A stretch of 64,000 bases of DNA from a virus (IMGVR_UViG_3300020042_009419:22742-86741); one strand, 5' to 3'. Counted from the first letter of the stretch, positions 4,062 to 59,200 are shown. The notes: generated from the sequence alone by a model not told the origin. Program-made: numbers and translations.

Positions 4062-4099
4062 CTGTTGCGATTGTTGCATAAATCTGTTACACTAAGCAG

Positions 4100-19479: not shown

Positions 19480-19639
19480 CAGCAGCATGGAGACTATGGG
19501 CCAAGGCACTAGGAGAAAAAGCCTGTGCAAATAACAGCGATGCGGATCGTGTGGCCCTGGTAAGAACTGCTATAATTGCATGTTATGTTATCACAAACAT
19601 GTTTATTATAGCAGGTGTTATACGACATTGGTAAAAAAT

Positions 19640-20275
19640 ATGAGTTACATAGTAGGATCATTACCTCCCATCAAGTGCTGGATCAAAAGAGAATTTCTCT
19701 ACAACTTTGAAAAAGGTCACGGAGAATTAGAACCTGCCATCTGGGTCAGTCTCAAAGCACTAAGAGGACAGGTGTTTCGCATCGAGAGCTTGTTGCCCAA
19801 TTACGGAGCACTCTACGACAAACTGCCTATACATGCCTATGTATGGCAAGAAAACTACACAGGCACATTGCCTATTGACACCCTACAACTCTGGGACTGC
19901 ATGGGCTATCGTTTTACCATTATTGAAAAAATAGGTCTGCGTAATCTGGGTGTGAAATTTCTGGGCAAAGATCGGGAATGGCACTACGGCACTTACCTGT
20001 TTACCGTGGACTTTTGTGCCGACGGCATGGATGTGGACACAGGCTTTACCGAAGTTGCTGAAGAACACAAGAGCTTTAACTTTATTCGACTGGAAAATGG
20101 ACAGTTTGCTTGTCAGCCCAACAATCGATGCCTATGGTACGATCAAAGTTTGATCTCGGGTAATGTTAAGTTTCCAGACTTTAAAGCCGCACAAAATTTA
20201 TGGACAGTGGATGGCACACGCAAGTGGACCGCAGGAGATGATTGGTTTTACACCATTGAAGAAAAAAATGACTAA
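19640..20275 (+). CDS. hypothetical protein inserted between nrdA and nrdB
   Basis: ORF in the nrdA-nrdB intergenic slot. The ATG at 19640 (MSYIVGS) is preferred over 19580. Confidence 0.4.
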   Translation: MSYIVGSLPPIKCWIKREFLYNFEKGHGELEPAIWVSLKALRGQVFRIESLLPNYGALYDKLPIHAYVWQENYTGTLPIDTLQLWDCMGYRFTIIEKIGLRNLGVKFLGKDREWHYGTYLFTVDFCADGMDVDTGFTEVAEEHKSFNFIRLENGQFACQPNNRCLWYDQSLISGNVKFPDFKAAQNLWTVDGTRKWTAGDDWFYTIEEKND

Positions 20276-37114: not shown

Positions 37115-37426
37115 ATGCCTCAATCAGATACCCGTACTAAAATCAAGCCACTAGAACAAATAAAAGAACCGCCGCTGTTTAGAGTAGTATATCTCAACGA
37201 CAATCAAACTTCCATGGAATTTGTTGTGGAAACCCTGATTGACTATTTCAACTACACCGCGGAAACTGCGGAACAGATCACAGTGGACATTCACGAAACT
37301 GGCGCTGCCACTGTGGCTGTGTTACCATATGAACTGGCCGAACAAAAAGGTGTAGAAGTCACGCTGTTGGCACGGGCACAAAGTTATCCTTTGCAGATCA
37401 AACTGGAACCAGAACCCTCAACCTAA
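37115..37426 (+). CDS. clpS: ClpS adaptor protein
   Basis: PPLFRVVYLNDNQTSMEFVVETL and ITVDIHETGAATVAV match the ClpS core. Confidence 0.75.
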   Translation: MPQSDTRTKIKPLEQIKEPPLFRVVYLNDNQTSMEFVVETLIDYFNYTAETAEQITVDIHETGAATVAVLPYELAEQKGVEVTLLARAQSYPLQIKLEPEPST

Positions 37427-38214
37427 AAGTCGATCACAATTCGTTTGGGATGATAAACATATTGACTGTGGGTGGTGTTGCCGCGTCCACGACAGTTGTT
37501 GACAAATCTTACACCGCTGCGAGTTTGATCCACTGATCCATGATAATGTCCAAAACACCAGGTGTGTATTTTGTGTTCGGTATCTGCTGCCAGAGCCTGC
37601 ATCATGAGTCTATTGCCCATGACATTCATTCTCATTGATCCATCAAGACCAATATCGTGTGCAATCAGTGCAGGGTCAGGCACTGTGTGAGTGACCATTA
37701 CTATTTTTTTGACATCTCTATGAGTTTGCAAACGTTTGACACTGGCGGCCATGTAAGCAGCATCAGTGCGGCTCAGTTGAGTAATGGTCTTGGTAGTTGT
37801 GCTGCTTAGGTTGTATGTCGCTTGACACCATAGCGCACTCTGCTCCGAGTCAATGCTGAGATCAAAATCAAAACCCCACCAACCATTTGTGCCCAGAATC
37901 CCCACACCGTCCACTATGACCACGTTGTCTTGCAGATACACCACGTTGGGGATTCGATCAATCTGTGCTATAAATTCTCGGTAGCTGGCACCCAGATTGT
38001 CAAGACCCAACAAATGTTCGTCATTACCGTCAGTGTAAAACACAGCTTGATAGCACTGCCCCAGATGAGTCAGTGCCTTCAGCACCTGAGTACGATCGCT
38101 ACCAATATCGCCGGCTACAACACACACAGGGCTGGTGGCATAACCGGTCCAGACAAACTCTCCCCAGGTTTCTATATGTAAGTCAGAAATCAAATCAAAT
38201 GCAAATGTCATCAT
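37423..38214 (-). CDS. metallophosphoesterase (calcineurin-like)
   Basis: DLHIE, GDIGSD and GNDEH motifs. Confidence 0.65.
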   Translation of the reverse strand: MMTFAFDLISDLHIETWGEFVWTGYATSPVCVVAGDIGSDRTQVLKALTHLGQCYQAVFYTDGNDEHLLGLDNLGASYREFIAQIDRIPNVVYLQDNVVIVDGVGILGTNGWWGFDFDLSIDSEQSALWCQATYNLSSTTTKTITQLSRTDAAYMAASVKRLQTHRDVKKIVMVTHTVPDPALIAHDIGLDGSMRMNVMGNRLMMQALAADTEHKIHTWCFGHYHGSVDQTRSGVRFVNNCRGRGNTTHSQYVYHPKRIVIDF

Positions 38215-38235
38215 ACATATTTAAAAGGATTTAAC

Positions 38236-38589
38236 ATGCACATTATATTTGGCAGCACCTCTCAAGAAATACCCAACAGCTTCACAGTACTGGAGCTAGA
38301 CACATTTCGTATGGTCAAAGAAAATCGCACTGACACTGCATATTGCGTGGTGGAAAAAGTACCACTAACTGAACTTGCTATGTTGGATGCGTACAAAAAG
38401 ATACACGCTGATCTTGTACAGTATTATCGTCAGCGACAATGGAACTATTGTGAAAACGCCATCGAGGGTCTTATGGGCAAGTGGAATGGCGAACTGGACA
38501 CGTTCTACAGTGACCTCCTGACTCGGGTGATCAAGTTCAAGGAAAACGAACCAGACTCAGACTGGGACGGAACCTTGCTTAGAATTTAA
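38236..38589 (+). CDS. hypothetical protein
   Basis: 117-aa ORF. Confidence 0.4.
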   Translation: MHIIFGSTSQEIPNSFTVLELDTFRMVKENRTDTAYCVVEKVPLTELAMLDAYKKIHADLVQYYRQRQWNYCENAIEGLMGKWNGELDTFYSDLLTRVIKFKENEPDSDWDGTLLRI

Positions 38590-39882
38590 GTAAGATAAAA
38601 CTGTGTCAAGATGATCTTTATATCGATCAAAAACCTTGTATCGATCAAGCACACCGGTAATAAATTGTAAGTTACGAGTTTGCTCCCAGTGTTTTCCGGT
38701 GCAATTCTGATTCATTATGATCATGGCATGATTCATGTTGTTGTTATACTCTTGAACTATACTGGCTTGCCACTCATCAGAGAAAAATCTTTGTTTGTTT
38801 CTCTCAGCAATCTGATGCAGTTGATTCCATAATACAATTTTATCCGAATCGGTTAGAGAACTTATTCTAGTCATTTCCTGAATCACAGCGGCTAATCTAG
38901 CCACAGGATCTGTTTCAAGATCGTACGATTCATCTATTAGATTGCCAAATGTTTCAAATCCATAGCTACGCAGGTATTCCAGGCTACCAGCAGTGGCAAC
39001 CAACATAAAGGGTTTGCCGCAGGCAATGGGGCGCAGAGACTTTTCTGTGAGATGTAGCCGTGAATCATCAAACAAGGTTTCCAGCACAATTTCCATGCCT
39101 GTTTGAGCATAATCCCGATTGTTGTAATCAGCACTGGCATGTGAATCATGTGTGTTCGGGGGCAACATTGTTTCCAGATCAGTTCTGGCGATTGCCAAAT
39201 CAGGATTAACAAACTTGTGTTGACTATAATGCATGCCTGAATCTACAGGTGCAAAACTAGTGTGGCAATGTTTCACCAATCCTGCCTGGACCAGTAGGTC
39301 GGCAAACGTTAGTCTGTATTCTCTGGTGCCCGACCAGGCACGATTGTATATTAAAAAATCTTGTGCAAAAGTATCGGTATTATATTGTAGTACAGGGTCA
39401 TGTACAGCATATCTAAACCAATCAGATGCAATTAAGGCATGGCTCCAGTAGTACACTGGTAAAAATCCATGTTGAAAATATGTGTCAACTTCTCGACTGT
39501 TTTTTTCAGAATGTACTATTATAGTATAATCGTATAAATTGATTGTTTCTTGTACAACTCCTCTGAGATGTAATGATGTAAATTTACTAATCCACTGAGG
39601 TAGTTTATAACCGTCTAACAGGTGGTTACTGTTGCTATAATCTATCTTGTTCATCCAAAATTGTGTAAAATCATCAGAAGCCCAGTAATTAAAATTTAAT
39701 GGCTCCTGATCATGAAAAATTGCATACGGAGTGGTCATTTCTTTGACCCAGAGTGCAGTTGGCATTAGTTGCAACAGATCCTCAAGTTTTTTTGAGCCAT
39801 GCGGTGTGAAGCGATAAATTGTTATATCATGGTCGACAACATCATGCAAAAAGTTGTATAATCTATCTAAAGGAACTGACAT
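38557..39882 (-). CDS. hypothetical protein, possibly a glycosyltransferase; AT-rich gene
   Basis: 441 aa. C-terminal-half segment ACGKPFMLVATAGSLEYL resembles a GT-B nucleotide-sugar-binding region (weak). Its start is divergent from and adjacent to the UGDH start. Confidence 0.35.
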   Translation of the reverse strand: MSVPLDRLYNFLHDVVDHDITIYRFTPHGSKKLEDLLQLMPTALWVKEMTTPYAIFHDQEPLNFNYWASDDFTQFWMNKIDYSNSNHLLDGYKLPQWISKFTSLHLRGVVQETINLYDYTIIVHSEKNSREVDTYFQHGFLPVYYWSHALIASDWFRYAVHDPVLQYNTDTFAQDFLIYNRAWSGTREYRLTFADLLVQAGLVKHCHTSFAPVDSGMHYSQHKFVNPDLAIARTDLETMLPPNTHDSHASADYNNRDYAQTGMEIVLETLFDDSRLHLTEKSLRPIACGKPFMLVATAGSLEYLRSYGFETFGNLIDESYDLETDPVARLAAVIQEMTRISSLTDSDKIVLWNQLHQIAERNKQRFFSDEWQASIVQEYNNNMNHAMIIMNQNCTGKHWEQTRNLQFITGVLDRYKVFDRYKDHLDTVLSYLNSKQGSVPV

Positions 39883-39884
39883 AT

Positions 39885-41126
39885 ATGAAGAATATTGGAT
39901 TTATTGGAATTGGCAAATTGGGTCTAGAATGTGCAGAAGTCTTTGCTGAGCAGCACACAGTACGGGGATATGATATTTACCCGCGAACCAGTGACACAGT
40001 AAAAGTTTGTGATATTGATGAGCTGGTGAATCAAAGTGAATGGATCTTTATTGCTGTGCCAACTCCGCATCAGGAAGGTTACGATGGATCTGTGCCCAGC
40101 AGTCACATGGAACCCAAAGACTTTGGGCACGATGCTGTGATTGATGCTATCAAGAACATAAACAAATATGCAACTAGTCCAAAAAAGGTTGTGTTGATCA
40201 GTACTGTATTGCCCGGAACCACACGCCGCAAGTTTTTTCCGTTGTTGGACTCACAACATCAGTTCCTGTACAACCCGTATCTGATTGCCATGGGCAGTGT
40301 CAAATGGGACATGGTCAACCCAGAAATGGTCATGATTGGCACAGATGATGGCAATCCCAATGCTCTGGCTGCTGAACTGATTGATCTATACAAAACTATC
40401 ATGCAAAACAACCCACGCTACGAGATTGGCACCTGGGACGAATGTGAAGCAATGAAAATTTTTTACAACACATTTATCAGTGCCAAAGTGGGCCTGGTCA
40501 ACATGATACAGGACTTTGCTCTGCGAATTGGACATATCAATGTGGATGTGGTCACAGACGCCTTGGCACGAAGTACCATGCGTATCATGGGACCTAAATA
40601 CATGACAGCGGGCATGGGCGATGCAGGCGCTTGCCACCCAAGAGACAACATTGCTCTGCGTTGGTTGGCCAAAGAATATGACATTGGCTACGACTTGTTT
40701 GATACTGTGATGCATGCTAGAGAAATTCAAGCAAAAAATCTAGCAATGTTCTTGCTGGACCAAAGTACAACTCACAACAACTTACCCGTGGTAATACACG
40801 GCAAAGCATACAAGCCAGACGTTCCGTATTGCATCGGCAGTTACAGTACCCTGGTTGGTTTTTATCTAGAACAAGCAGGACACCAAGTGGTCTATGTTGA
40901 TCCGTTGGCAGATGATCCAGCTAATGTGGTTGACAGTGTGGATTATCCTGCGGTGTTTCTTTGGGCACACAATCGCAAAATCACTTATGAATACACTGGC
41001 GACCAATTGGACACACAACCCTACTGTGCTATCAAGCCGGGCAGCATCATAGTTGACCCTTGGCGCAAACTGACTTCAACACCGGAACTTCAAGTTGTTC
41101 ATTATGGCAACACAAGACCTGCTTAA
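39885..41126 (+). CDS. UDP-glucose/GDP-mannose dehydrogenase family protein
   Basis: N-terminal NAD-binding IGFIGIGKLG. Catalytic-Cys region GMGDAGACHPRD (compare GFGGSCFPKD). Confidence 0.7.
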   Translation: MKNIGFIGIGKLGLECAEVFAEQHTVRGYDIYPRTSDTVKVCDIDELVNQSEWIFIAVPTPHQEGYDGSVPSSHMEPKDFGHDAVIDAIKNINKYATSPKKVVLISTVLPGTTRRKFFPLLDSQHQFLYNPYLIAMGSVKWDMVNPEMVMIGTDDGNPNALAAELIDLYKTIMQNNPRYEIGTWDECEAMKIFYNTFISAKVGLVNMIQDFALRIGHINVDVVTDALARSTMRIMGPKYMTAGMGDAGACHPRDNIALRWLAKEYDIGYDLFDTVMHAREIQAKNLAMFLLDQSTTHNNLPVVIHGKAYKPDVPYCIGSYSTLVGFYLEQAGHQVVYVDPLADDPANVVDSVDYPAVFLWAHNRKITYEYTGDQLDTQPYCAIKPGSIIVDPWRKLTSTPELQVVHYGNTRPA

Positions 41127-42860: not shown

Positions 42861-42889
42861 TAGACAAATAATGAAAAATCTTGTATAAT
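42861..42889 (+). promoter_or_regulatory. sigma70-type promoter (TAGACA-17-TATAAT) only 6 nt upstream of the uvdE ATG (leaderless transcript)
   Basis: Read directly from the sequence. Confidence 0.4.
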
Positions 42890-42895
42890 AAGCGT

Positions 42896-43924
42896 ATGAC
42901 TACACCCCAAATTGGTTTTTGTTGCAAATGGCTCAATGATCCGTCCGAATGTGGCGGCATGAAGGTCAATGCTGCGGACCGTGAACTAAACGGCCGATCA
43001 ACCACCATGCGCTGGCTTCGCGAGCACAAGGACGAGGCCGAACAGCGGCAATGGGACATAATGAATCACAATGCCGCAGCGGCAGTTCGCATGATCGAAC
43101 GAGTAGCCACCTTGCCCGAAGGTCGTAGAATGGTACGGCTGGGTTCAGAAATGCTGCAAGGCTATACTGAACCTTCATGGATCGACTGGTGGCAGCGCAA
43201 AGAGATACAAGATCACTGTGAACGGATCTTTGCTCCTGTTGGTGAAACTGCCCGCAGACTGGGTGTGAGACTCAGCTTCCATCCCGGACAGTTCTGTGTG
43301 CTGGCCAGTGAGCATGACGTGATTGTGGAACGCAGCATACTAGAATTTGAGTATCATGCAGACATGGCTCGCTGGATGGGCTATGGAAAAAGTTGGCATG
43401 ACTCGGGATTCAAGATAAATGTACATTTAAGTGGCAAAGGTGGTGTCACTAAATTCCTAAAGACCTTGGGTCGCCTCAGTTCCGAGGCCCGGAATCTTAT
43501 CTCCATCGAAAATGACGAAATGACAAATGGCATCGATTCTACTTTACTTGTGGCTGAGCATGTGGCTCTTGTGCTGGACATACACCATCACTGGATCAAC
43601 AGCGGAGAATACATCACGCCTGCGGACCCTCGTGCGCAACGGGTTGTTGAGTCTTGGCGTGGTGTTCGTCCTGCTCTTCACTACAGTGTTAGCCGTGAAG
43701 ATATTTTGGTGGGTCACGATCACCGAGTTCGACCCGATCTTGCTGGACTACTTGCAGCAGGTTTTAAAAAGCAGAAGCTCCGGGCACACAGCGATATGAT
43801 GTGGAACACTGCCTGCAATGAATGGGCCCTGACATTTGGTGATCAGTGGGATATTCAGTGTGAGGCCAAGGGCAAGAATCTTGCCAGTGAACAGGTGTAC
43901 AATCAGCGACTGGCTCAGACATGA
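42896..43924 (+). CDS. uvdE: UV-damage endonuclease UvdE/UvsE
   Basis: RLSFHPGQFCVLAS...LISIENDE...LDIHHH matches the UvsE motifs RIDFHPDQFVVLNS, ENDD and DYHHH. Confidence 0.65.
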   Translation: MTTPQIGFCCKWLNDPSECGGMKVNAADRELNGRSTTMRWLREHKDEAEQRQWDIMNHNAAAAVRMIERVATLPEGRRMVRLGSEMLQGYTEPSWIDWWQRKEIQDHCERIFAPVGETARRLGVRLSFHPGQFCVLASEHDVIVERSILEFEYHADMARWMGYGKSWHDSGFKINVHLSGKGGVTKFLKTLGRLSSEARNLISIENDEMTNGIDSTLLVAEHVALVLDIHHHWINSGEYITPADPRAQRVVESWRGVRPALHYSVSREDILVGHDHRVRPDLAGLLAAGFKKQKLRAHSDMMWNTACNEWALTFGDQWDIQCEAKGKNLASEQVYNQRLAQT

Positions 43925-44217
43925 ACGATATATTACCCAACATTTTTTCTTGGATACGAGATGACTATAAAACTTACCCTGTGCGTTTTGCAGTTGAGAT
44001 TGTGGCTTGGGCAGTGTCTATTGGCTGCTCGATCACAATGGCGATCACCGTCCCAAACCCTCCGTTGTTGTACATGTATCCTATCTGGATTGCTGGTTGT
44101 GCCATGTATGCTTGGGCTAGTTATACTAGGAAATCTTTTGGCATGCTGGCTAACTACATCCTGCTGGTAAGCATAGACATGGTGGGACTGGTTCGCATGA
44201 TTCTGCAAATTGTGTAA
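43921..44217 (+). CDS. small integral membrane protein (3 TM)
   Basis: ATGA-coupled to uvdE. Confidence 0.4.
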   Translation: MNDILPNIFSWIRDDYKTYPVRFAVEIVAWAVSIGCSITMAITVPNPPLLYMYPIWIAGCAMYAWASYTRKSFGMLANYILLVSIDMVGLVRMILQIV

Positions 44218-44230
44218 CAAAATTGTAACA
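44213..44230 (+). promoter_or_regulatory. Pho-box-like element: TGTAACA-aaat-TGTAACA
   Basis: Two 7-bp direct repeats with a 4-bp spacer (11-bp periodicity), about 38 nt upstream of the pstS ATG. Confidence 0.45.
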
Positions 44231-44268
44231 TTTTAGTCATTAAATAAATGTACTAACAAGGAGTCAAG

Positions 44269-45264
44269 ATGAAAAAATTATTAGCTATTCTATTATCAGT
44301 TGTTGCAGTTTCCGCAACAGCACAAGAAGTTACAGGAGCCGGTGCAACATTTCCGGCTCCGTTGTATTCAAAGTGGGCCAGTGACTACAACCGCGTGACC
44401 AACATCAAAATCAACTATCAGTCAGTTGGTTCAGGTGCAGGCATCAAACAGATTGAAGCCAAGACAGTTACGTTTGGTGCAAGTGATATGCCACTCACAG
44501 ATGATCGACTAAAAGATCTGGGACTATTCCAGTTCCCCACAGCAATTGGCGGCGTGGTTCCGGTGATCAACGTCAAGGGCATTGAACCCGGGCAAATGAA
44601 ACTCACAGGCACATTGATTGCAGACATTTTCTTAGGCAAGATTACCCGTTGGGACGACGCTGCTATCCGGGCACTGAACCCTTCATTATCTTTACCTGAC
44701 CAAGCAATCACTGTGGTTCGCAGAGCAGATGGATCAGGAACTACATTTATCTGGACCAACTATCTCAGCAAGGTATCTAAAGAATTCAAAGACACCATTG
44801 GCGAAGGCACAGCGGTCAACTGGAAAGTTGGAGCAGGCGGCAAAGGCAACGAAGGTGTTGCTGCAATGGTTCGTCAGTTGCCCGGATCATTGGGTTATGT
44901 TGAATTTGCTTATGTAAAGCAAACCAAGATGAACTGGGTCAATGTACAGAATTCAGCTGGTACCTGGGTGGCACCCACAGAAGAAGCATTCAAGGCAGCT
45001 GCCGCAAATGCTGACTGGAACCGAACATACTTTCAGATTCTAACTAATCAAGCAGGCAAAGAAGCATGGCCCATCTCAGGTGCTACATTTATTCTGGTGT
45101 ACTTGAAACCCGAAGATGCTGCAAAATCCAAAACTGCCATTGCGTTCTTTGACTGGGCATTTGCCAGTGGAGATAAAGCAGCAGATGATCTAGACTATGT
45201 GGCATTGCCTTTAGCAGTGAAGAACAAGATTCGTGCAGACTGGAAACGGTTGGCACTACACTAA
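44269..45264 (+). CDS. pstS: phosphate ABC transporter periplasmic phosphate-binding protein PstS
   Basis: Signal peptide followed by GAGATFPAPLYSKWA...YQSVGSGAGIKQ...TFGASDMPL. Aligns with E. coli PstS over its whole length. Confidence 0.9.
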   Translation: MKKLLAILLSVVAVSATAQEVTGAGATFPAPLYSKWASDYNRVTNIKINYQSVGSGAGIKQIEAKTVTFGASDMPLTDDRLKDLGLFQFPTAIGGVVPVINVKGIEPGQMKLTGTLIADIFLGKITRWDDAAIRALNPSLSLPDQAITVVRRADGSGTTFIWTNYLSKVSKEFKDTIGEGTAVNWKVGAGGKGNEGVAAMVRQLPGSLGYVEFAYVKQTKMNWVNVQNSAGTWVAPTEEAFKAAAANADWNRTYFQILTNQAGKEAWPISGATFILVYLKPEDAAKSKTAIAFFDWAFASGDKAADDLDYVALPLAVKNKIRADWKRLALH

Positions 45265-45312
45265 ACCGACCGCAAGATTGAGCGGAGGCTGGAACTCGTA
45301 ACCAGCACTAAG

Positions 45313-45340
45313 GGCCCCAGGGGCTCTTTTTTATTGGCAA
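45313..45340 (+). terminator. rho-independent terminator
   Basis: GGGCCCC-a-GGGGCTC hairpin followed by TTTTTTATT. Confidence 0.5.
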
Positions 45341-45543
45341 ATATTTCACTAACGGTATAAATAGTTTTCAAGGATGGGCATGTCATGAAACAATCAAAAT
45401 TGATCACAAAATTATACCGTGCCTGCGTTGACCACGATGACAAGAAGATTCAAGAACTTCGTCAAGAAGAATATCGAAAAATTCTGAAACACAAGGCTGC
45501 TGGTAAGACATTTACCGCCCGCTGGACTCTGGTACAGATATAG

Positions 45544-45561
45544 TGTAACACAACTGTAACA
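45544..45561 (+). promoter_or_regulatory. second Pho-box-like element: TGTAACA-caac-TGTAACA
   Basis: Same 7-4-7 architecture, about 31 nt upstream of the ATG at 45593. Confidence 0.45.
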
Positions 45562-45592
45562 TTGTTGGGGTGAGCTTCTGCTTAAATACCCC

Positions 45593-46357
45593 ATGCAGAA
45601 AACTTATCGCAGTATCTTTATCTCAGATGTACATCTTGGTACTAGAGACTGCCAAGCAGAGAAACTCAACAACTTTCTCAAGAACAACACCTGCGAGACC
45701 CTGTATCTTGTGGGGGACATAATAGATGCCTGGCGCATACAGCAGAACAAGTGGCGTTGGAAACAGAGCCATACCAATGTGGTGCGCAGAGTTCTTGGTC
45801 ATGCCAAGCGTGGCACTAGAGTTGTTTATGTGGCCGGCAATCATGACGAATTTCTAAGACCCATGATACCATATGGGTTCAGTTTTGGACATGTTGAAAT
45901 ACACAATCAAATAGAACACATAGGTGCAGATGGCAATCATTATCTGGTGGTGCACGGCGACCTGTTTGATGGCATTACCAGACTGGCACCCTGGATAGCA
46001 TTCTTGGGAGATCGAGCATATGATATCATTCTTTCTGTCAACAGCAAGTTTAATTGGATACGTCACCGTATGGGTTTTGGGTACTTTAGCCTTAGCAAGT
46101 TTCTTAAGCACAAGGTCAAAAAAGCAGTAGACTTTATATTCAAGTTTGAAGAAAACCTAGCCAACTACTGCAAGAAGCGTGGCTTTGATGGTGTGATCTG
46201 TGGACACATACATCATGCAGAGATCAAAGAGATCAACGGAGTCACATACATGAATGATGGTGACTGGGTTGAATCATGTACAGCCCTGGTGGAACATCAT
46301 GATGGTGCATGGGAAATAATTACTTGGACACGGGAGACAGACCATGAAAATCAGTGA
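45593..46357 (+). CDS. LpxH-like metallophosphoesterase (UDP-2,3-diacylglucosamine hydrolase family)
   Basis: FISDVHLG, LYLVGDIIDAW and VAGNHDEF, in the same order as in LpxH. Confidence 0.65.
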   Translation: MQKTYRSIFISDVHLGTRDCQAEKLNNFLKNNTCETLYLVGDIIDAWRIQQNKWRWKQSHTNVVRRVLGHAKRGTRVVYVAGNHDEFLRPMIPYGFSFGHVEIHNQIEHIGADGNHYLVVHGDLFDGITRLAPWIAFLGDRAYDIILSVNSKFNWIRHRMGFGYFSLSKFLKHKVKKAVDFIFKFEENLANYCKKRGFDGVICGHIHHAEIKEINGVTYMNDGDWVESCTALVEHHDGAWEIITWTRETDHENQ

Positions 46358-47054
46358 CAAAATCACTATTGTAGTACCATGCAAGAATGAGGAAACGTAC
46401 ATCCATCATTTGCTAGACGCTTTGCGAGCACAGAACATAGGTGATACCAGAGTTATCATTGCTGACTGTAGTACTGACCGCACTAGACAAGTTATACGAG
46501 ACAACAGTTGGGAATTGAACGTTGAAATAATAGACGGCGGGCCGGTGTCTATGGCCAAGAACAACGGAGCACGACTGGTGACTACACCATACATCTTGTT
46601 CATTGATGCTGATGTTCGTTTCTTCAAATACGATGTTATCCGTGATGCTGTTGACAAAATTGAATTGCTAAATTTAGATCTTGTGGGGCTGAACATCAAG
46701 TGTTATGATCAAGATCTTAGAGCAAAAGCAGGGTTTGTTGTGTTCAACACCATAAATCATGCGCTGAAATATTTCTCTCCCTTTGCAGTTGGGGCGTTCA
46801 TGCTCACACGCAGAGACCGATTTGAAGAATATGGCGGCTTCCCCGAAAACTTTTCCACCAGCGAAGATTACTTTTTGTCCAGAAAATACAGCCCTCGAAA
46901 GTTTAGAATCATCCGACACCACCTTGGACAGGATAGTCGTAGATTCAAAAAAATGGGCTACATGGGCATGGCCCGATACCTTGTGAAAAACTTTGTGAAT
47001 CGCAACAACAAACAATACTGGGACAGCCTAGACAACAGCAAGTACTGGAGTTGA
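46344..47054 (+). CDS. family 2 glycosyltransferase
   Basis: ITIVVPCKNEE and a DxD motif (FIDADV). Confidence 0.65.
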   Translation: MKISDKITIVVPCKNEETYIHHLLDALRAQNIGDTRVIIADCSTDRTRQVIRDNSWELNVEIIDGGPVSMAKNNGARLVTTPYILFIDADVRFFKYDVIRDAVDKIELLNLDLVGLNIKCYDQDLRAKAGFVVFNTINHALKYFSPFAVGAFMLTRRDRFEEYGGFPENFSTSEDYFLSRKYSPRKFRIIRHHLGQDSRRFKKMGYMGMARYLVKNFVNRNNKQYWDSLDNSKYWS

Positions 47055-47094
47055 AATTGAGTATTGTTTAGCGATTTTGCAGCTAAATAGCTCT

Positions 47095-47991
47095 ATGAGA
47101 GCACAAGAATTCCTAGCAGAAGCAGCCACCGCAGTGGTTTACCATTATGCAGGTATAGGTGCAGCAGCCAAAATACTCACCAGCGGCGTATTCCAACTCA
47201 GCAGCGTGACCGGCAACAAGAGTGAAGAAATGTATGCTCCCCCGGGATATCCGTATTTTCTAAGTACCACACGCAGTCGAGTGGGCGACTATCATAGATA
47301 TGTTGGCAGCGGCGGTGTGATGTTTGTGATCGACGGCACCTGGCTGAATCGCAACTACAAGACTCGACCTGTGGACTACTGGGATCGTGCTTGGTTACAC
47401 AGCAACAGTACCAGAACTCGTGAAAGCGAAGACCGTGTGTTTAGTCGTGAGCCCGAAATCCCAATTGACGGAGTGACAGCAGTACATGTGCTGCTGAAAG
47501 AACAAAGTGAATATCGCAGTCCTGAGGCTAGAACAGTATTGATTGCTGCAAAGAAACGTGGCATTCCTGCGTATTTTTACACAGACGAAACTGCCTGGCG
47601 CCTGCAAGACACCCGTAAGGCTGTGAGCCCGGCCTCAGCAGCACCGTTGCTCAAAGGCGCACAGCCCAAAGGCTCTACACCCAGCAGACCCCCTACAATG
47701 TATCTTGAGCCGTGGCTGGAACTGATCTACAAAAACAACAAATCAGAACTAACTCCACGTGCAGAAAAACTGCGACACGATCTGGTTTATTACGGATCAA
47801 GATATCCTGACGAAGACAGCGGCTTAGGAGTGGACATGGGCAATGCTCGCAAGCCCAATAGTTCAGACTATCCCACAGCAGTCAAGATCAACGATTACAT
47901 GCGTAGAAACAAGTTCCCAACCACTGTGGCACTCAAAAATGCCATGGTGGACAAATGGGACAAGATCAACACACCCACAGCACAATCGTGA
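47095..47991 (+). CDS. hypothetical protein
   Basis: ATG at 47095. The track's 47077 start is a TTG. Confidence 0.4.
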   Translation: MRAQEFLAEAATAVVYHYAGIGAAAKILTSGVFQLSSVTGNKSEEMYAPPGYPYFLSTTRSRVGDYHRYVGSGGVMFVIDGTWLNRNYKTRPVDYWDRAWLHSNSTRTRESEDRVFSREPEIPIDGVTAVHVLLKEQSEYRSPEARTVLIAAKKRGIPAYFYTDETAWRLQDTRKAVSPASAAPLLKGAQPKGSTPSRPPTMYLEPWLELIYKNNKSELTPRAEKLRHDLVYYGSRYPDEDSGLGVDMGNARKPNSSDYPTAVKINDYMRRNKFPTTVALKNAMVDKWDKINTPTAQS

Positions 47992-57972: not shown

Positions 57973-58368
57973 ATGGAAACTATTGTTGATTTTACCCAAT
58001 GGGTACTCTGGATTGCCTGTGCTGTTGTCTTGGCTACCATGCTGGCGGAAATGGTACTAAAAACATATCTCCTGATAAAAATAAAAAAGTATCAGACTGA
58101 ACTGCAACCAGTGTTGGACGTGATGGAACGTGCTGTTGCTGGCCAACTAATCCTGCTCACTGTAGAAGTTGACCACAACCAGTATCTGTGCTATAATGCA
58201 CTGACCCAGGAATTTGTGTGTCAAGGTATTGATGTAACCGAAATAGTTCAACGCTTCAGAGCCAGATTCCCGGACAAGTCATTGACAATATTCAATGGTG
58301 ATGACACAGCAGTGACAACACTACAACAACAATCTAGAGCACAACATGAAAATCTCAATTTGCAGTGA
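57973..58368 (+). CDS. membrane-anchored hypothetical protein
   Basis: N-terminal TM helix WVLWIACAVVLATMLA. Confidence 0.4.
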   Translation: METIVDFTQWVLWIACAVVLATMLAEMVLKTYLLIKIKKYQTELQPVLDVMERAVAGQLILLTVEVDHNQYLCYNALTQEFVCQGIDVTEIVQRFRARFPDKSLTIFNGDDTAVTTLQQQSRAQHENLNLQ

Positions 58369-59200
58369 CCTCCATTTGGAGTTTGGTGACCTTGACTTTG
58401 ACAACACAGAGTCAGCACAGGTTCTGGTTCTCTCCGGCGATATCTGTGTGGCCCGAGACATGGTTGCACATGACAGTGTTGAAGTGCCGGGCATAGATGG
58501 CCGCAGCGGTCGCTATCACAAATTCTTCCAACGTTGTTCAGAGCGTTTTGAGCATGTGGTGTACATTGCCGGCAATCATGAGCACTACAATCATGACTTT
58601 GCAAAAACTATTCCACGTTTGAAGGATGTGTTGAGCCACTTGCCCAACCTGCATGTGATGGAAAAAGATTTGCTTGATATTGGCGACATCACGTTCCTGG
58701 CTGGCACATTATGGACAGACATGAACCGCGAAGATCCCAGTACCTTGTACAGTATTCGCAACTACATGAACGACTTTCGTTGCATCACCAACAGCGCCAA
58801 AGAAACCCACTTTCGTGATCAGGATGGCAACTTTCAAACTCGCGTGTCCAGGTTCACGCCTGAAGACACTGTGGAAGAACACAAGGCCATGCTGGCATTT
58901 GTGAACACCGCCATCACAGCCAGACCTGATCGGCAGTACGTGGTTGTGGGGCATCACAGTCCCAGCAAGCTCAGTACCAAGCCACAGTACGAGGACGATC
59001 AACTGGTGAATGGTGCATACAGCAGTGACCTGAGTGAGTTTATTCTTGATCATCCGCAGATTTGTCTGTGGACACATGGACACACTCATCATGAATTTGA
59101 CTACCTGGTTGGTACCACTCGAATTGTTTGCAACCCACGTGGCTATGTCGGCTATGAGTCGCAGGCCACTGACTGGCGATTGCTAACAGTTGAGGTATGA
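58346..59200 (+). CDS. metallophosphoesterase (calcineurin-like)
   Basis: ICSDLHLEFGD, VLSGDI and IAGNHEHY. Confidence 0.65.
   Translation: MKISICSDLHLEFGDLDFDNTESAQVLVLSGDICVARDMVAHDSVEVPGIDGRSGRYHKFFQRCSERFEHVVYIAGNHEHYNHDFAKTIPRLKDVLSHLPNLHVMEKDLLDIGDITFLAGTLWTDMNREDPSTLYSIRNYMNDFRCITNSAKETHFRDQDGNFQTRVSRFTPEDTVEEHKAMLAFVNTAITARPDRQYVVVGHHSPSKLSTKPQYEDDQLVNGAYSSDLSEFILDHPQICLWTHGHTHHEFDYLVGTTRIVCNPRGYVGYESQATDWRLLTVEV

Follow-up and report, generated by a model that had tools for sequence, protein, structure and literature searches.

Two adjacent transcription units of a phage genome are preceded by the same pair of short direct repeats, which raises the question of which regulator reads these repeats and what the genes behind them do. 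The units lie in a stretch of 64,000 nucleotides (IMGVR_UViG_3300020042_009419:22742-86741, referred to here as the window), and this DNA is phage DNA. The first unit encodes the periplasmic phosphate-binding protein PstS, and the second a metallophosphoesterase followed by a family-2 glycosyltransferase (GT2). An initial annotation, made from the sequence alone, had compared the repeats with the Pho boxes that are bound by PhoB and had taken the second unit for an LpxH-like pyrophosphatase with a glycosyltransferase partner. Phosphate-uptake genes carried by phages (pstS, phoA and phoH) are a textbook example of viral reprogramming of host nutrient acquisition, and to our knowledge marine cyanophages are so far the only phages in which control of such genes by host PhoB has been demonstrated. 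Here, we describe the evidence that the two repeats are likely PhoB-type Pho boxes, which would tie pstS and a lipid-renovation module to the PhoR/PhoB system of the host, and that the phosphoesterase belongs to the PlcP family. The locus would thereby extend the PhoB logic, with an unusually clean and footprinted signal, to freshwater jumbo phages with probable betaproteobacterial hosts, and add to phosphate uptake a second strategy, in which phosphorus would be mined from membrane phospholipids by PlcP and a glycosyltransferase.

Paired repeats in front of pstS and plcP

The two repeats and the genes that they precede are the following (positions are counted from the first letter of the window):

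44213-44230, + strand: putative Pho box 1, TGTAACA-aaat-TGTAACA (pattern search; weight-matrix score 26.2)
44269-45264, + strand: pstS, periplasmic phosphate-binding protein of 331 amino acids (aa) with an N-terminal signal peptide (NCBIfam, Pfam)
45544-45561, + strand: putative Pho box 2, TGTAACA-caac-TGTAACA (pattern search; weight-matrix score 26.0)
45593-46357, + strand: plcP, PlcP-family metallophosphoesterase of 254 aa (identity to the PA3219-locus protein)
46344-47054, + strand: GT2-family glycosyltransferase of 236 aa, with its own GGGAGA Shine-Dalgarno sequence and a 14-nt overlap with plcP

Both boxes occupy tiny intergenic gaps directly 5' of gene starts. Box 1, found in the context GTG-TGTAACA-aaat-TGTAACA-TT, lies 38 nt 5' of the pstS ATG at 44269 and shares bases of its first half-site with the TAA stop of a 98-aa membrane-protein open reading frame (ORF; 43921-44217); the region in front of pstS reads caaattgTGTAACAaaatTGTAACAttttagtcatTAAATAaatgtactaacAAGGAGtcaagATG. 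Box 2, about 1.3 kb downstream and in the context TAG-TGTAACA-caac-TGTAACA-TT, lies 31 nt 5' of the plcP ATG at 45593, in a region that reads cagataTAGTGTAACAcaacTGTAACAttgttggggtgagcttctgcTTAAATAccccATG. The repeats are thus exactly those described in the initial annotation, at both sites with two 7-bp direct repeats, a 4-bp spacer and an 11-bp period. A pattern search of the window with up to 2 mismatches gave no third copy of TGTAACA-N4-TGTAACA; two extra matches are the same sites read on the opposite strand, because the heptamer is nearly palindromic, and the isolated single copies that had been mentioned before were recovered at 4085, 48361 and 50476.

A repeat this short could in principle arise by chance, and two counts would fit such an origin: TGTAACA by itself is not enriched in the window (12 copies against 14.2 expected), and in a motif-agnostic control 7-mers of any sequence repeated at an 11-bp period were about as common as expected (6 seen against 5.0). 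The pairing of one and the same 7-mer at this period at two separate places, however, occurred in just 2 of 1000 shuffled sequences. A weight matrix made from related phages only, with the window excluded, scored both boxes above every shuffle, the shuffled-sequence maxima averaging 13.3 and not exceeding 22.7, and the next independent site in the window reached 13.1. From the rarity of the pair, the shuffle counts and the matrix scores we conclude that the repeats are real; given also their conservation in dozens of diverged relatives, the probability of a chance origin is negligible.

This conservation was followed in the sequences 5' of pstS and of the phosphoesterase gene in 160 related loci, using the half-site pattern NGT(A/C)A(C/T)N in two or three copies at an 11-bp period. 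Half-sites at this period are present in 42 of 47 distinct pstS upstream regions, and of these 42 relatives 28 have a TAAAT element 10 nt behind the 7-bp half-site and 6 have it at 9 nt. Circularity was avoided by re-anchoring the pstS regions on TAAAT alone, which gave 31 non-redundant promoters whose PstS proteins are 53-98% identical: 28 of them carry two TGT(A/C)A blocks 11 bp apart, the consensus is tTTGTAA.A.aatTGTaAtA.T..TgTg.tTAAATA, and positions -48 to -30 of the alignment are without conservation. The half-sites found at the same positions vary and include TGTAACA, TGTAATA, TGTAATC, TGTCACA and TGTCATA; one relative (L132) has a fully canonical box, TGTCATAattcCGTCATAatttTGTCATA, and another (L130) has three TGTCACA repeats, TGTCACAgaaaTGTCACAatttTGTCACA. 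Upstream of plcP, a pair is found under the strict pattern in 32 of 74 distinct regions, where the half-site is followed by TAAAT after 10 nt in 21 relatives and after 20-21 nt in 11, the group to which the window belongs, and with two exceptions the relatives with a pair have this -10 element 1-8 nt from the ATG. When 2.2 Mb of related phage sequence was scanned on both strands, 116 sites scored at least 19, of which 55 precede pstS, 44 plcP, and 9 one gene family located right after the glycosyltransferase gene; the other 8 sites are miscellaneous.

The third of these groups corresponds to a strong box that several relatives carry after the plcP-glycosyltransferase operon, e.g. TGTAATAttacTGTAATA (L006/L007 at 5624, L020 at 5706, L028 at 4801, L044 at 5630, L049 at 5623, L067/L069 at 5462 and L145 at 4098 on the minus strand). 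It lies about 60-70 nt 5' of a gene for an Ala/Val/Glu-rich protein of 148-315 aa without assigned function, and this gene is a possible third member of a phage Pho regulon. The window has a different gene at this position (47077-47991), without a box.

Promoter layout and the case for PhoB

The E. coli Pho box that is bound by PhoB has the consensus CTGTCAT-N4-CTGTCAT. Bacterial promoters for comparison came from a genome-collection scan started from a PstS alignment, in which the 80 best relatives (53-70% identity) are, with two exceptions, Betaproteobacteria, mostly Burkholderiales/Comamonadaceae, with genera such as Rhodoferax, Curvibacter, Variovorax and Polaromonas and many freshwater metagenome-assembled genomes (MAGs). 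TGTCAY-N5-TGTCAY is present in 38 of 78 pstS promoters of these relatives (strict pattern). A two-repeat box stands in 13 of 15 inspected betaproteobacterial pstS promoters, and in all 13 the second hexamer is followed after exactly 10 nt by TAnnnT; the phage pstS promoter, with TGTAAC, 10 nt and TTAAAT, has the same layout. The phage half-site has precedents as well: TGTAAY half-sites occur in five genuine pstS boxes (Gallionella, Nitrosomonadales, Nitrosomonas, Sterolibacterium and an uncultured betaproteobacterium), and the classical PhoB-dependent phoE promoter of E. coli K-12, checked in the genome, reads CTGTAATatatCTTTAAC. TGTAAC/T is therefore a natural Pho-box variant. TGTAAC agrees with betaproteobacterial TGTCAC at 5/6 positions and with E. 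coli TGTCAT at 4/6, neither consensus being necessarily that of the host.

The genes behind the boxes point in the same direction. The product of pstS is unambiguously a PstS equivalog by its sequence (425 bits to NF008171, cut-off 339; 386 bits to TIGR00975, cut-off 205; Pfam PBP_like_2 match), and both downstream units, pstS and plcP with a glycosyltransferase gene, are Pho-regulon genes of bacteria (PMC8528852, PMC4796936). The plcP-agt operons of Pseudomonas aeruginosa and of marine bacteria are known to be preceded by a Pho box (PMC8528852, PMC4796936), and in P. aeruginosa we read CTGTCACgcaaCGGTCGCcggcCTGTCAC in front of the gene. Moreover, experiments on cyanophages have established that phage genes can be controlled by the PhoB of the host (PMC10976474). 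The initial proposal of a Pho-box architecture is thus supported by the layout, the position, the downstream genes and the conservation in relatives.

The remaining promoter and transcript features of the two units are listed below:

44235-44241, + strand: AGTCATT, candidate for a weak third half-site that continues the 11-bp period of box 1 (overlapping matrix match 15.1)
44240-44246, + strand: -10-like TTAAATA (hexamer TTAAAT or TAAATA), 10 or 11 nt after the second TGTAAC
44258-44263, + strand: Shine-Dalgarno sequence AAGGAG of pstS (read from the sequence)
45310-45334, + strand: intrinsic terminator after pstS, 8-bp stem and T-run (terminator scan)
45334-45362, + strand: putative sigma-70-type promoter TTGGCA-17 nt-ATAAAT, 5' of the 52-aa ORF (read from the sequence)
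45385-45543, + strand: 52-aa ORF, basic, its TAG stop abutting box 2, with its own sigma-70-like promoter and Shine-Dalgarno sequence
45582-45588, + strand: -10-like TTAAATA of plcP, at a distance of 20-21 nt from box 2 and of 4-5 nt from the ATG

No -35-like hexamer was found at box 1, and a sigma-70 scan called no -35/-10 pair at either box. The earlier statement that the repeats take the position of a -35 box therefore holds for pstS, where TTAAAT follows after 10 nt, and for plcP only loosely, with a distance of 20-21 nt. AGTCATT overlaps the -10-like element and may, although this is uncertain, represent the TG of an extended -10 instead of a half-site; at the same position TGTG is weakly conserved in relatives. 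The promoter of the 52-aa ORF shares its NTAAAT -10 with the two box promoters and differs from them by a -35 hexamer in place of the repeats. The start of plcP is without a Shine-Dalgarno sequence, and with the -10 element just 4-5 nt away from the ATG a leaderless or near-leaderless plcP mRNA is to be expected. The terminator hairpin and T-run after pstS are kept in relatives.

In the mechanism that we favour, phosphorylated host PhoB of a phosphate-starved infected cell would bind the two 7-bp half-sites as a head-to-tail dimer, the 11 bp between them amounting to one helical turn, and, placed where a -35 element would otherwise be, would recruit the sigma-70 RNA polymerase of the host to (T)TAAAT(A). 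The first promoter would then produce a monocistronic pstS mRNA ending at the 45310-45334 terminator, and phage PstS would provide an additional periplasmic phosphate-binding protein to the Pst transporter of the host. The second promoter would produce a plcP-GT2 mRNA, predicted to be leaderless; PlcP would split membrane phospholipids to give diacylglycerol and a phosphorylated head group with recoverable phosphorus, GT2 would convert diacylglycerol into a phosphorus-free glycolipid, and the phosphorus set free could be used to replicate the phage genome of roughly 260 kb. PhoB binding, induction by phosphate starvation, use of the host RNA polymerase, the activity of PlcP and the lipid acceptor of GT2 are all steps that we infer.

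Several observations weigh against this reading. TGTAAY is a minority form in the bacterial relatives (6/78 half-sites), where Comamonadaceae boxes are mostly TGTCAC; in addition, bioinformatic Pho-box calls in phage genomes can fail gel-shift assays (PMC10976474). The 20-21 nt between box 2 and its -10 element correspond to one extra helical turn, most relatives having 10 nt, and a third half-site, present within the long gap of some relatives, has been lost from the window, so that canonical class-II-type activation by PhoB is doubtful for plcP in the window. Read-through transcription into plcP could also start at the sigma-70-type promoter at 45334-45362. A further point concerns the -10 element itself, as TAAATA is biased towards non-coding DNA: 10 of its 27 plus-strand copies lie within the ~3 kb of intergenic DNA of the window, and if TAAATA is read by a phage-specific sigma factor or RNA polymerase, the mechanism of activation would be different.

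The ten intergenic TAAATA copies on the plus strand are at 2975, 7467, 10515, 24690, 29590, 33624, 36536, 37069, 51240 and 57963. At 2975, 29590, 33624 and 57963, as at plcP (45583), the element is located 0-7 nt before an ATG without a Shine-Dalgarno sequence, which suggests that TAAATA is a phage-wide -10-type promoter element associated with a class of leaderless mRNAs. No -35 motif is common to the intergenic sites. TAAATA resembles the core of T4-type late promoters; its use as a late promoter of this type, TATAAATA, by a phage sigma factor was considered, and TATAAATA is found only once in the window. PHROG scans of 30 window proteins, which represent part of the genome, gave no sigma factor or RNA polymerase.

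A different protein, either a phage regulator or a host response regulator that recognises direct repeats, might use the repeats as operators, in which case the two units would be co-regulated by a signal other than phosphate. Such a regulator would account for the dominance of TGTAAY in place of the TGTCAY of the closest bacterial pstS promoters, the phage-wide TAAATA would allow for phage-specific transcription, and the regulator could be encoded elsewhere, given that part of the ~260-kb genome was examined. It is harder to reconcile with the interchange of TGTAAY and TGTCAY at the same positions, with relatives whose boxes are fully canonical, with a spacing to the -10 equal to that of bacterial Pho promoters and with downstream genes that are exactly classical Pho-regulon genes. 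Furthermore, no OmpR-family, PhoB-like regulator gene was found in the window or in ~160 phage flanks with an approximate E. coli PhoB probe, which did detect phoB in a bacterial locus. We regard control by another regulator as unlikely.

A second possibility is that the boxes are passive leftovers of gene acquisition from a host and that the genes are transcribed from phage promoters regardless of phosphate. Both pstS and plcP are cellular in origin, the spacing of box 2 to its -10 element is non-canonical in the window, and a constitutive-looking promoter lies 5' of the 52-aa ORF and plcP, all of which would be expected under this explanation. Against it, the boxes have been kept while PstS diverged to 53% identity and the flanking non-coding DNA was randomised, and this maintenance despite divergence indicates purifying selection. 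The phage boxes have, moreover, moved to AT-rich variants instead of decaying, and the plcP box is kept across varied upstream contexts and with both types of glycosyltransferase partner. Since bacterial PlcP representatives are at most 54% identical to the phage protein, plcP was acquired long ago, long enough for a site without use to have decayed. Leftover boxes are accordingly an improbable explanation in our view, and regulation by PhoB is the reading that we consider probable.

Compared with the Proteobacterial Pho box, the phage elements share the two 7-bp direct repeats, the 4-bp spacer, the replacement of the -35 element, the ~10-nt distance to the -10, the position in front of pstS and plcP-agt, and a TGTAAT variant as in E. 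coli phoE and in betaproteobacterial pstS boxes. They differ in their prevailing half-site, TGTAAC/T in place of TGTCAC/T, in an invariant -10 element, (T)TAAAT(A), which doubles as the general intergenic element of the phage, and in the plcP box of the window, which is located one helical turn further upstream; they are also phage-borne and known here from sequence.

The phosphoesterase and its glycosyltransferase partner

What the second unit does depends on the identity of its first gene, which had been described as LpxH-like. The phage protein is 56% identical (270 bits) to a P. aeruginosa protein encoded beside cyaB (PA3217) and a downstream glycosyltransferase gene, i.e. at the PA3219 (plcP)-PA3218 (agt1) locus that has been characterised before (PMC8528852), and 48% identical to a Sinorhizobium meliloti homolog taken to be PlcP; between the P. 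aeruginosa and S. meliloti proteins we find 46.6% identity, in agreement with the 46% quoted in PMC8528852. Its metallophosphoesterase motifs DVH, GDIID, GNHDE, HGD and GHIHH are intact and aligned with those of both bacterial PlcP proteins (Pfam Metallophos at 7e-11). By contrast, it scores 45.0 bits against the LpxH model NF003743 (cut-off 134) and 37.7 bits against TIGR01854 (cut-off 190), matches LpxH structures at E about 1e-3 only, and reaches about 22 bits with P. aeruginosa LpxH (5B49), a separate paralog of the same organism. The LpxH identity was therefore rejected, with both equivalog cut-offs missed widely and PlcP far closer, although the two families share a branch of the metallophosphoesterase superfamily and differ otherwise in gene context. 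By its sequence, the protein is a member of the PlcP family of phospholipases C and is predicted to produce diacylglycerol.

Public annotations label the phage protein and bacterial PlcP alike as LpxH, and PlcP is thus systematically mis-annotated as LpxH in phage and bacterial genomes. Among bacterial representatives the nearest relative of phage PlcP is 54% identical, and none is closer; its gene cluster encodes an OlsF-like acyltransferase, a GT4 glycosyltransferase, PlcP and a second GT4. Other bacterial plcP homologs adjoin genes for a GT28 monoglycosyldiacylglycerol (MGDG) synthase, Ppx, PPK2 or CHAD proteins. Because bacterial relatives are 54% identical at most, PlcP gives no clue to the host. 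In most related phages PlcP is 293-294 aa long and ends in a C-terminal tail of 40 residues, which is of low complexity and rich in Ser/Pro/Arg, and 21 nt separate plcP from the glycosyltransferase gene (e.g. L001, 8001-8885). The lineage of the window is without this tail, and its plcP overlaps the GT2 gene by 14 nt (46344-46357). A truncation of the 254-aa protein was considered and rejected, the missing 40 residues being the tail of the relatives, which is located beyond the catalytic domain.

Two further phages have related genes. Pelagibacter phage Mosig EXVC030M (L163, MT647606; 1894-3729) encodes a PlcP homolog with 48% identity, annotated as a putative UDP-2,3-diacylglucosamine hydrolase, whose gene is divergent from a phosphate-binding-protein gene. 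The 150-nt intergenic region that the two genes share holds TTTTAACAaaaaCTTAACA, i.e. TTAACA repeats at an 11-bp period, and no glycosyltransferase gene follows the plcP homolog. Synechococcus phage S-SRM01 has a PlcP homolog with 38% identity, labelled LpxH and without an adjacent glycosyltransferase.

The second gene of the operon is recognised as a glycosyltransferase by Pfam Glycos_transf_2 (PF00535, 1e-18) and Glyco_transf_21 (25.8 bits, cut-off 21.7). Wherever a distinct phage locus extends far enough downstream of plcP (74 of 74), the next gene encodes a glycosyltransferase; it is of the GT2 type found in the window in 48 and a GT4 in 26. The GT4 of the relatives is 39% identical over its full length to Agt1 (PA3218) of P. 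aeruginosa. Agt1 is a validated MGDG synthase. The GT2 of the window gave no significant alignment with Agt1 (E 2.9), and we propose that it would act as a diacylglycerol glycosyltransferase in the place of Agt. Partners of plcP are also exchanged among bacteria, where they are GT4 or GT28 enzymes, and such non-homologous replacement suggests that it is the function that is selected, presumably also in the case of GT2.

The assignment of this acceptor has to be weighed against three findings: plasmid records and solved structures gave only distant, generic GT2 matches with 24-29% identity, no homology to any characterised diacylglycerol glycosyltransferase was detectable, and a GT2 partner was not seen in five sampled bacterial plcP contexts. 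The best structure matches of GT2 are glycosyltransferases of wall teichoic acid and other polysaccharides. The initial annotation had suggested an LpxH-type UDP-2,3-diacylglucosamine pyrophosphatase which, together with GT2, remodels lipid A precursors or surface glycans. Such a pair would agree with the LpxH name in public annotations, with LpxH as the closest solved structure, and with an unproven GT2 acceptor whose best structural counterparts are of the polysaccharide type. It is contradicted by the wide failure of both equivalog models, by 270 bits to PlcP against about 22 bits to LpxH, by the Agt-type partner in related phages and by the location of bacterial homologs in lipid-renovation clusters, and we consider it very improbable. 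The view that a link between phosphate stress and this gene pair is not a standard one was also revised: the PhoB-regulated PlcP-Agt pair is standard in bacteria, and its carriage by a phage is what appears to be new.

Known systems, the phage group and neighbouring genes

Two known systems can be compared with the locus. Cyanophages place auxiliary genes including pstS under the PhoBR system of the host, as in P-SSM2 (pstS) and in S-PM2d, where the boxes were supported by PhoB gel shifts (PMC10976474). There, however, the box is of the cyanobacterial form PyTTAAPyPy(T/A) and the phages are cyanomyoviruses, whereas the present boxes are of the proteobacterial type and found in freshwater jumbo phages; the second unit is here a lipid-renovation operon, and PMC10976474 makes no mention of lipid. 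The bacterial PlcP-Agt operons (S. meliloti SMc00171; Phaeobacter MED193; SAR11 HTCC7211; P. aeruginosa PA3219-PA3218; PMC4796936, PMC8528852) share with the phage operon the order of PlcP and a translationally coupled glycosyltransferase and the Pho box upstream. The phage operon differs in being phage-encoded, in an unrelated 236-aa GT2 in the place of Agt, with a presumed diacylglycerol acceptor, and in a plcP mRNA that is predicted to be leaderless.

Phage pstS genes with Pho boxes, in cyanophages, and the bacterial PlcP-Agt operon with its Pho box are thus already known, and phage carriage of the PlcP module with a variant GT2 partner appears to be new. In the searchable literature, in which subscription journals are thinly covered, we found no account of a PlcP encoded by a phage or of lipid renovation by phages, and this absence is not proof; the genome papers of Mosig and S-SRM01 do not mention the PlcP homolog. 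We lean slightly towards a more general proposal, namely that lipid renovation under phosphate starvation is a widespread, unrecognised phage function hidden behind the name LpxH, that the freshwater operons, found on more than 590 contigs, are wired to PhoB, and that GT2 represents a new family of diacylglycerol glycosyltransferases. If this is true, the phage would strip phosphorus from the membrane of its own phosphate-starved host to build virions, and viral lipid remodelling would alter cellular phosphorus quotas and hence the burst size under limitation. The membrane properties of infected cells would change as well; in P. aeruginosa, these glycolipids change the sensitivity to polymyxin B (PMC8528852). 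The reading of glycolipid-to-phospholipid ratios as markers of phosphorus stress, in lakes as well as in oceans, would also be affected.

The window encodes ribonucleotide reductase, a DnaB-type helicase, primase, DNA ligase, an exonuclease, virion-protein fragments and numerous auxiliary genes. IMG/VR contigs of up to 262 kb are 98% identical to it at the protein level, and more than 590 relatives of its phosphoesterase are found on viral IMG/VR contigs with sizes up to 345 kb. A megablast search gave no DNA-level match of the region in GenBank phages, and relatives were subsequently found by protein-guided scans. The sample numbers of several related contigs are those in the names of freshwater-lake bacterial MAGs, and the group probably consists of large (jumbo) freshwater phages with a genome of roughly 260 kb and betaproteobacterial hosts. 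The contexts of two relatives, L001 (240 kb) and L002 (70 kb), carry genes for superoxide dismutase (SOD), Cpn10, ribosomal protein S21, MazG and HSP70. In L001, a fatty-acid desaturase and an alpha/beta-hydrolase gene (10246-10953 and 11392-11967) lie just 3' of plcP-GT2, so that these phages may have a more extensive island of genes for lipid metabolism.

The 52-aa ORF between the two units is conserved directly 5' of plcP (59-96% identity, 20 of the 74 distinct phage loci) and had no family match in scans of the family libraries. A relationship to the small ORF before plcP in cyanophage S-SRM01 was considered and rejected, there being no similarity.

Other genes of the window are:

486-2018: radical-SAM protein (phrog_14086)
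19580-20275: phrog_3704 match, annotated as ferredoxin (5e-74)
37423-38214, - strand, and 58346-59200, + strand: two metallophosphoesterase genes distinct from PlcP (phrog_1649, 6e-27 and 3e-49)
39819-41126, + strand: UDP-glucose 6-dehydrogenase (phrog_9148 at 1.5e-87), 4.5 kb upstream of the operon
42881-43924: UvdE UV-damage endonuclease (Pfam, 4e-30)

The weight-matrix scan of the window gave no Pho box upstream of the UDP-glucose 6-dehydrogenase gene. GADG is made in P. aeruginosa by Agt2 from UDP-glucuronate (PMC8528852), and it is speculative that the phage dehydrogenase might supply UDP-glucuronate for a glucuronosyl-diacylglycerol lipid. The G+C content is markedly lower at positions 1-2000 (0.38) and 38001-40000 (0.41) of the window than elsewhere (~0.47).

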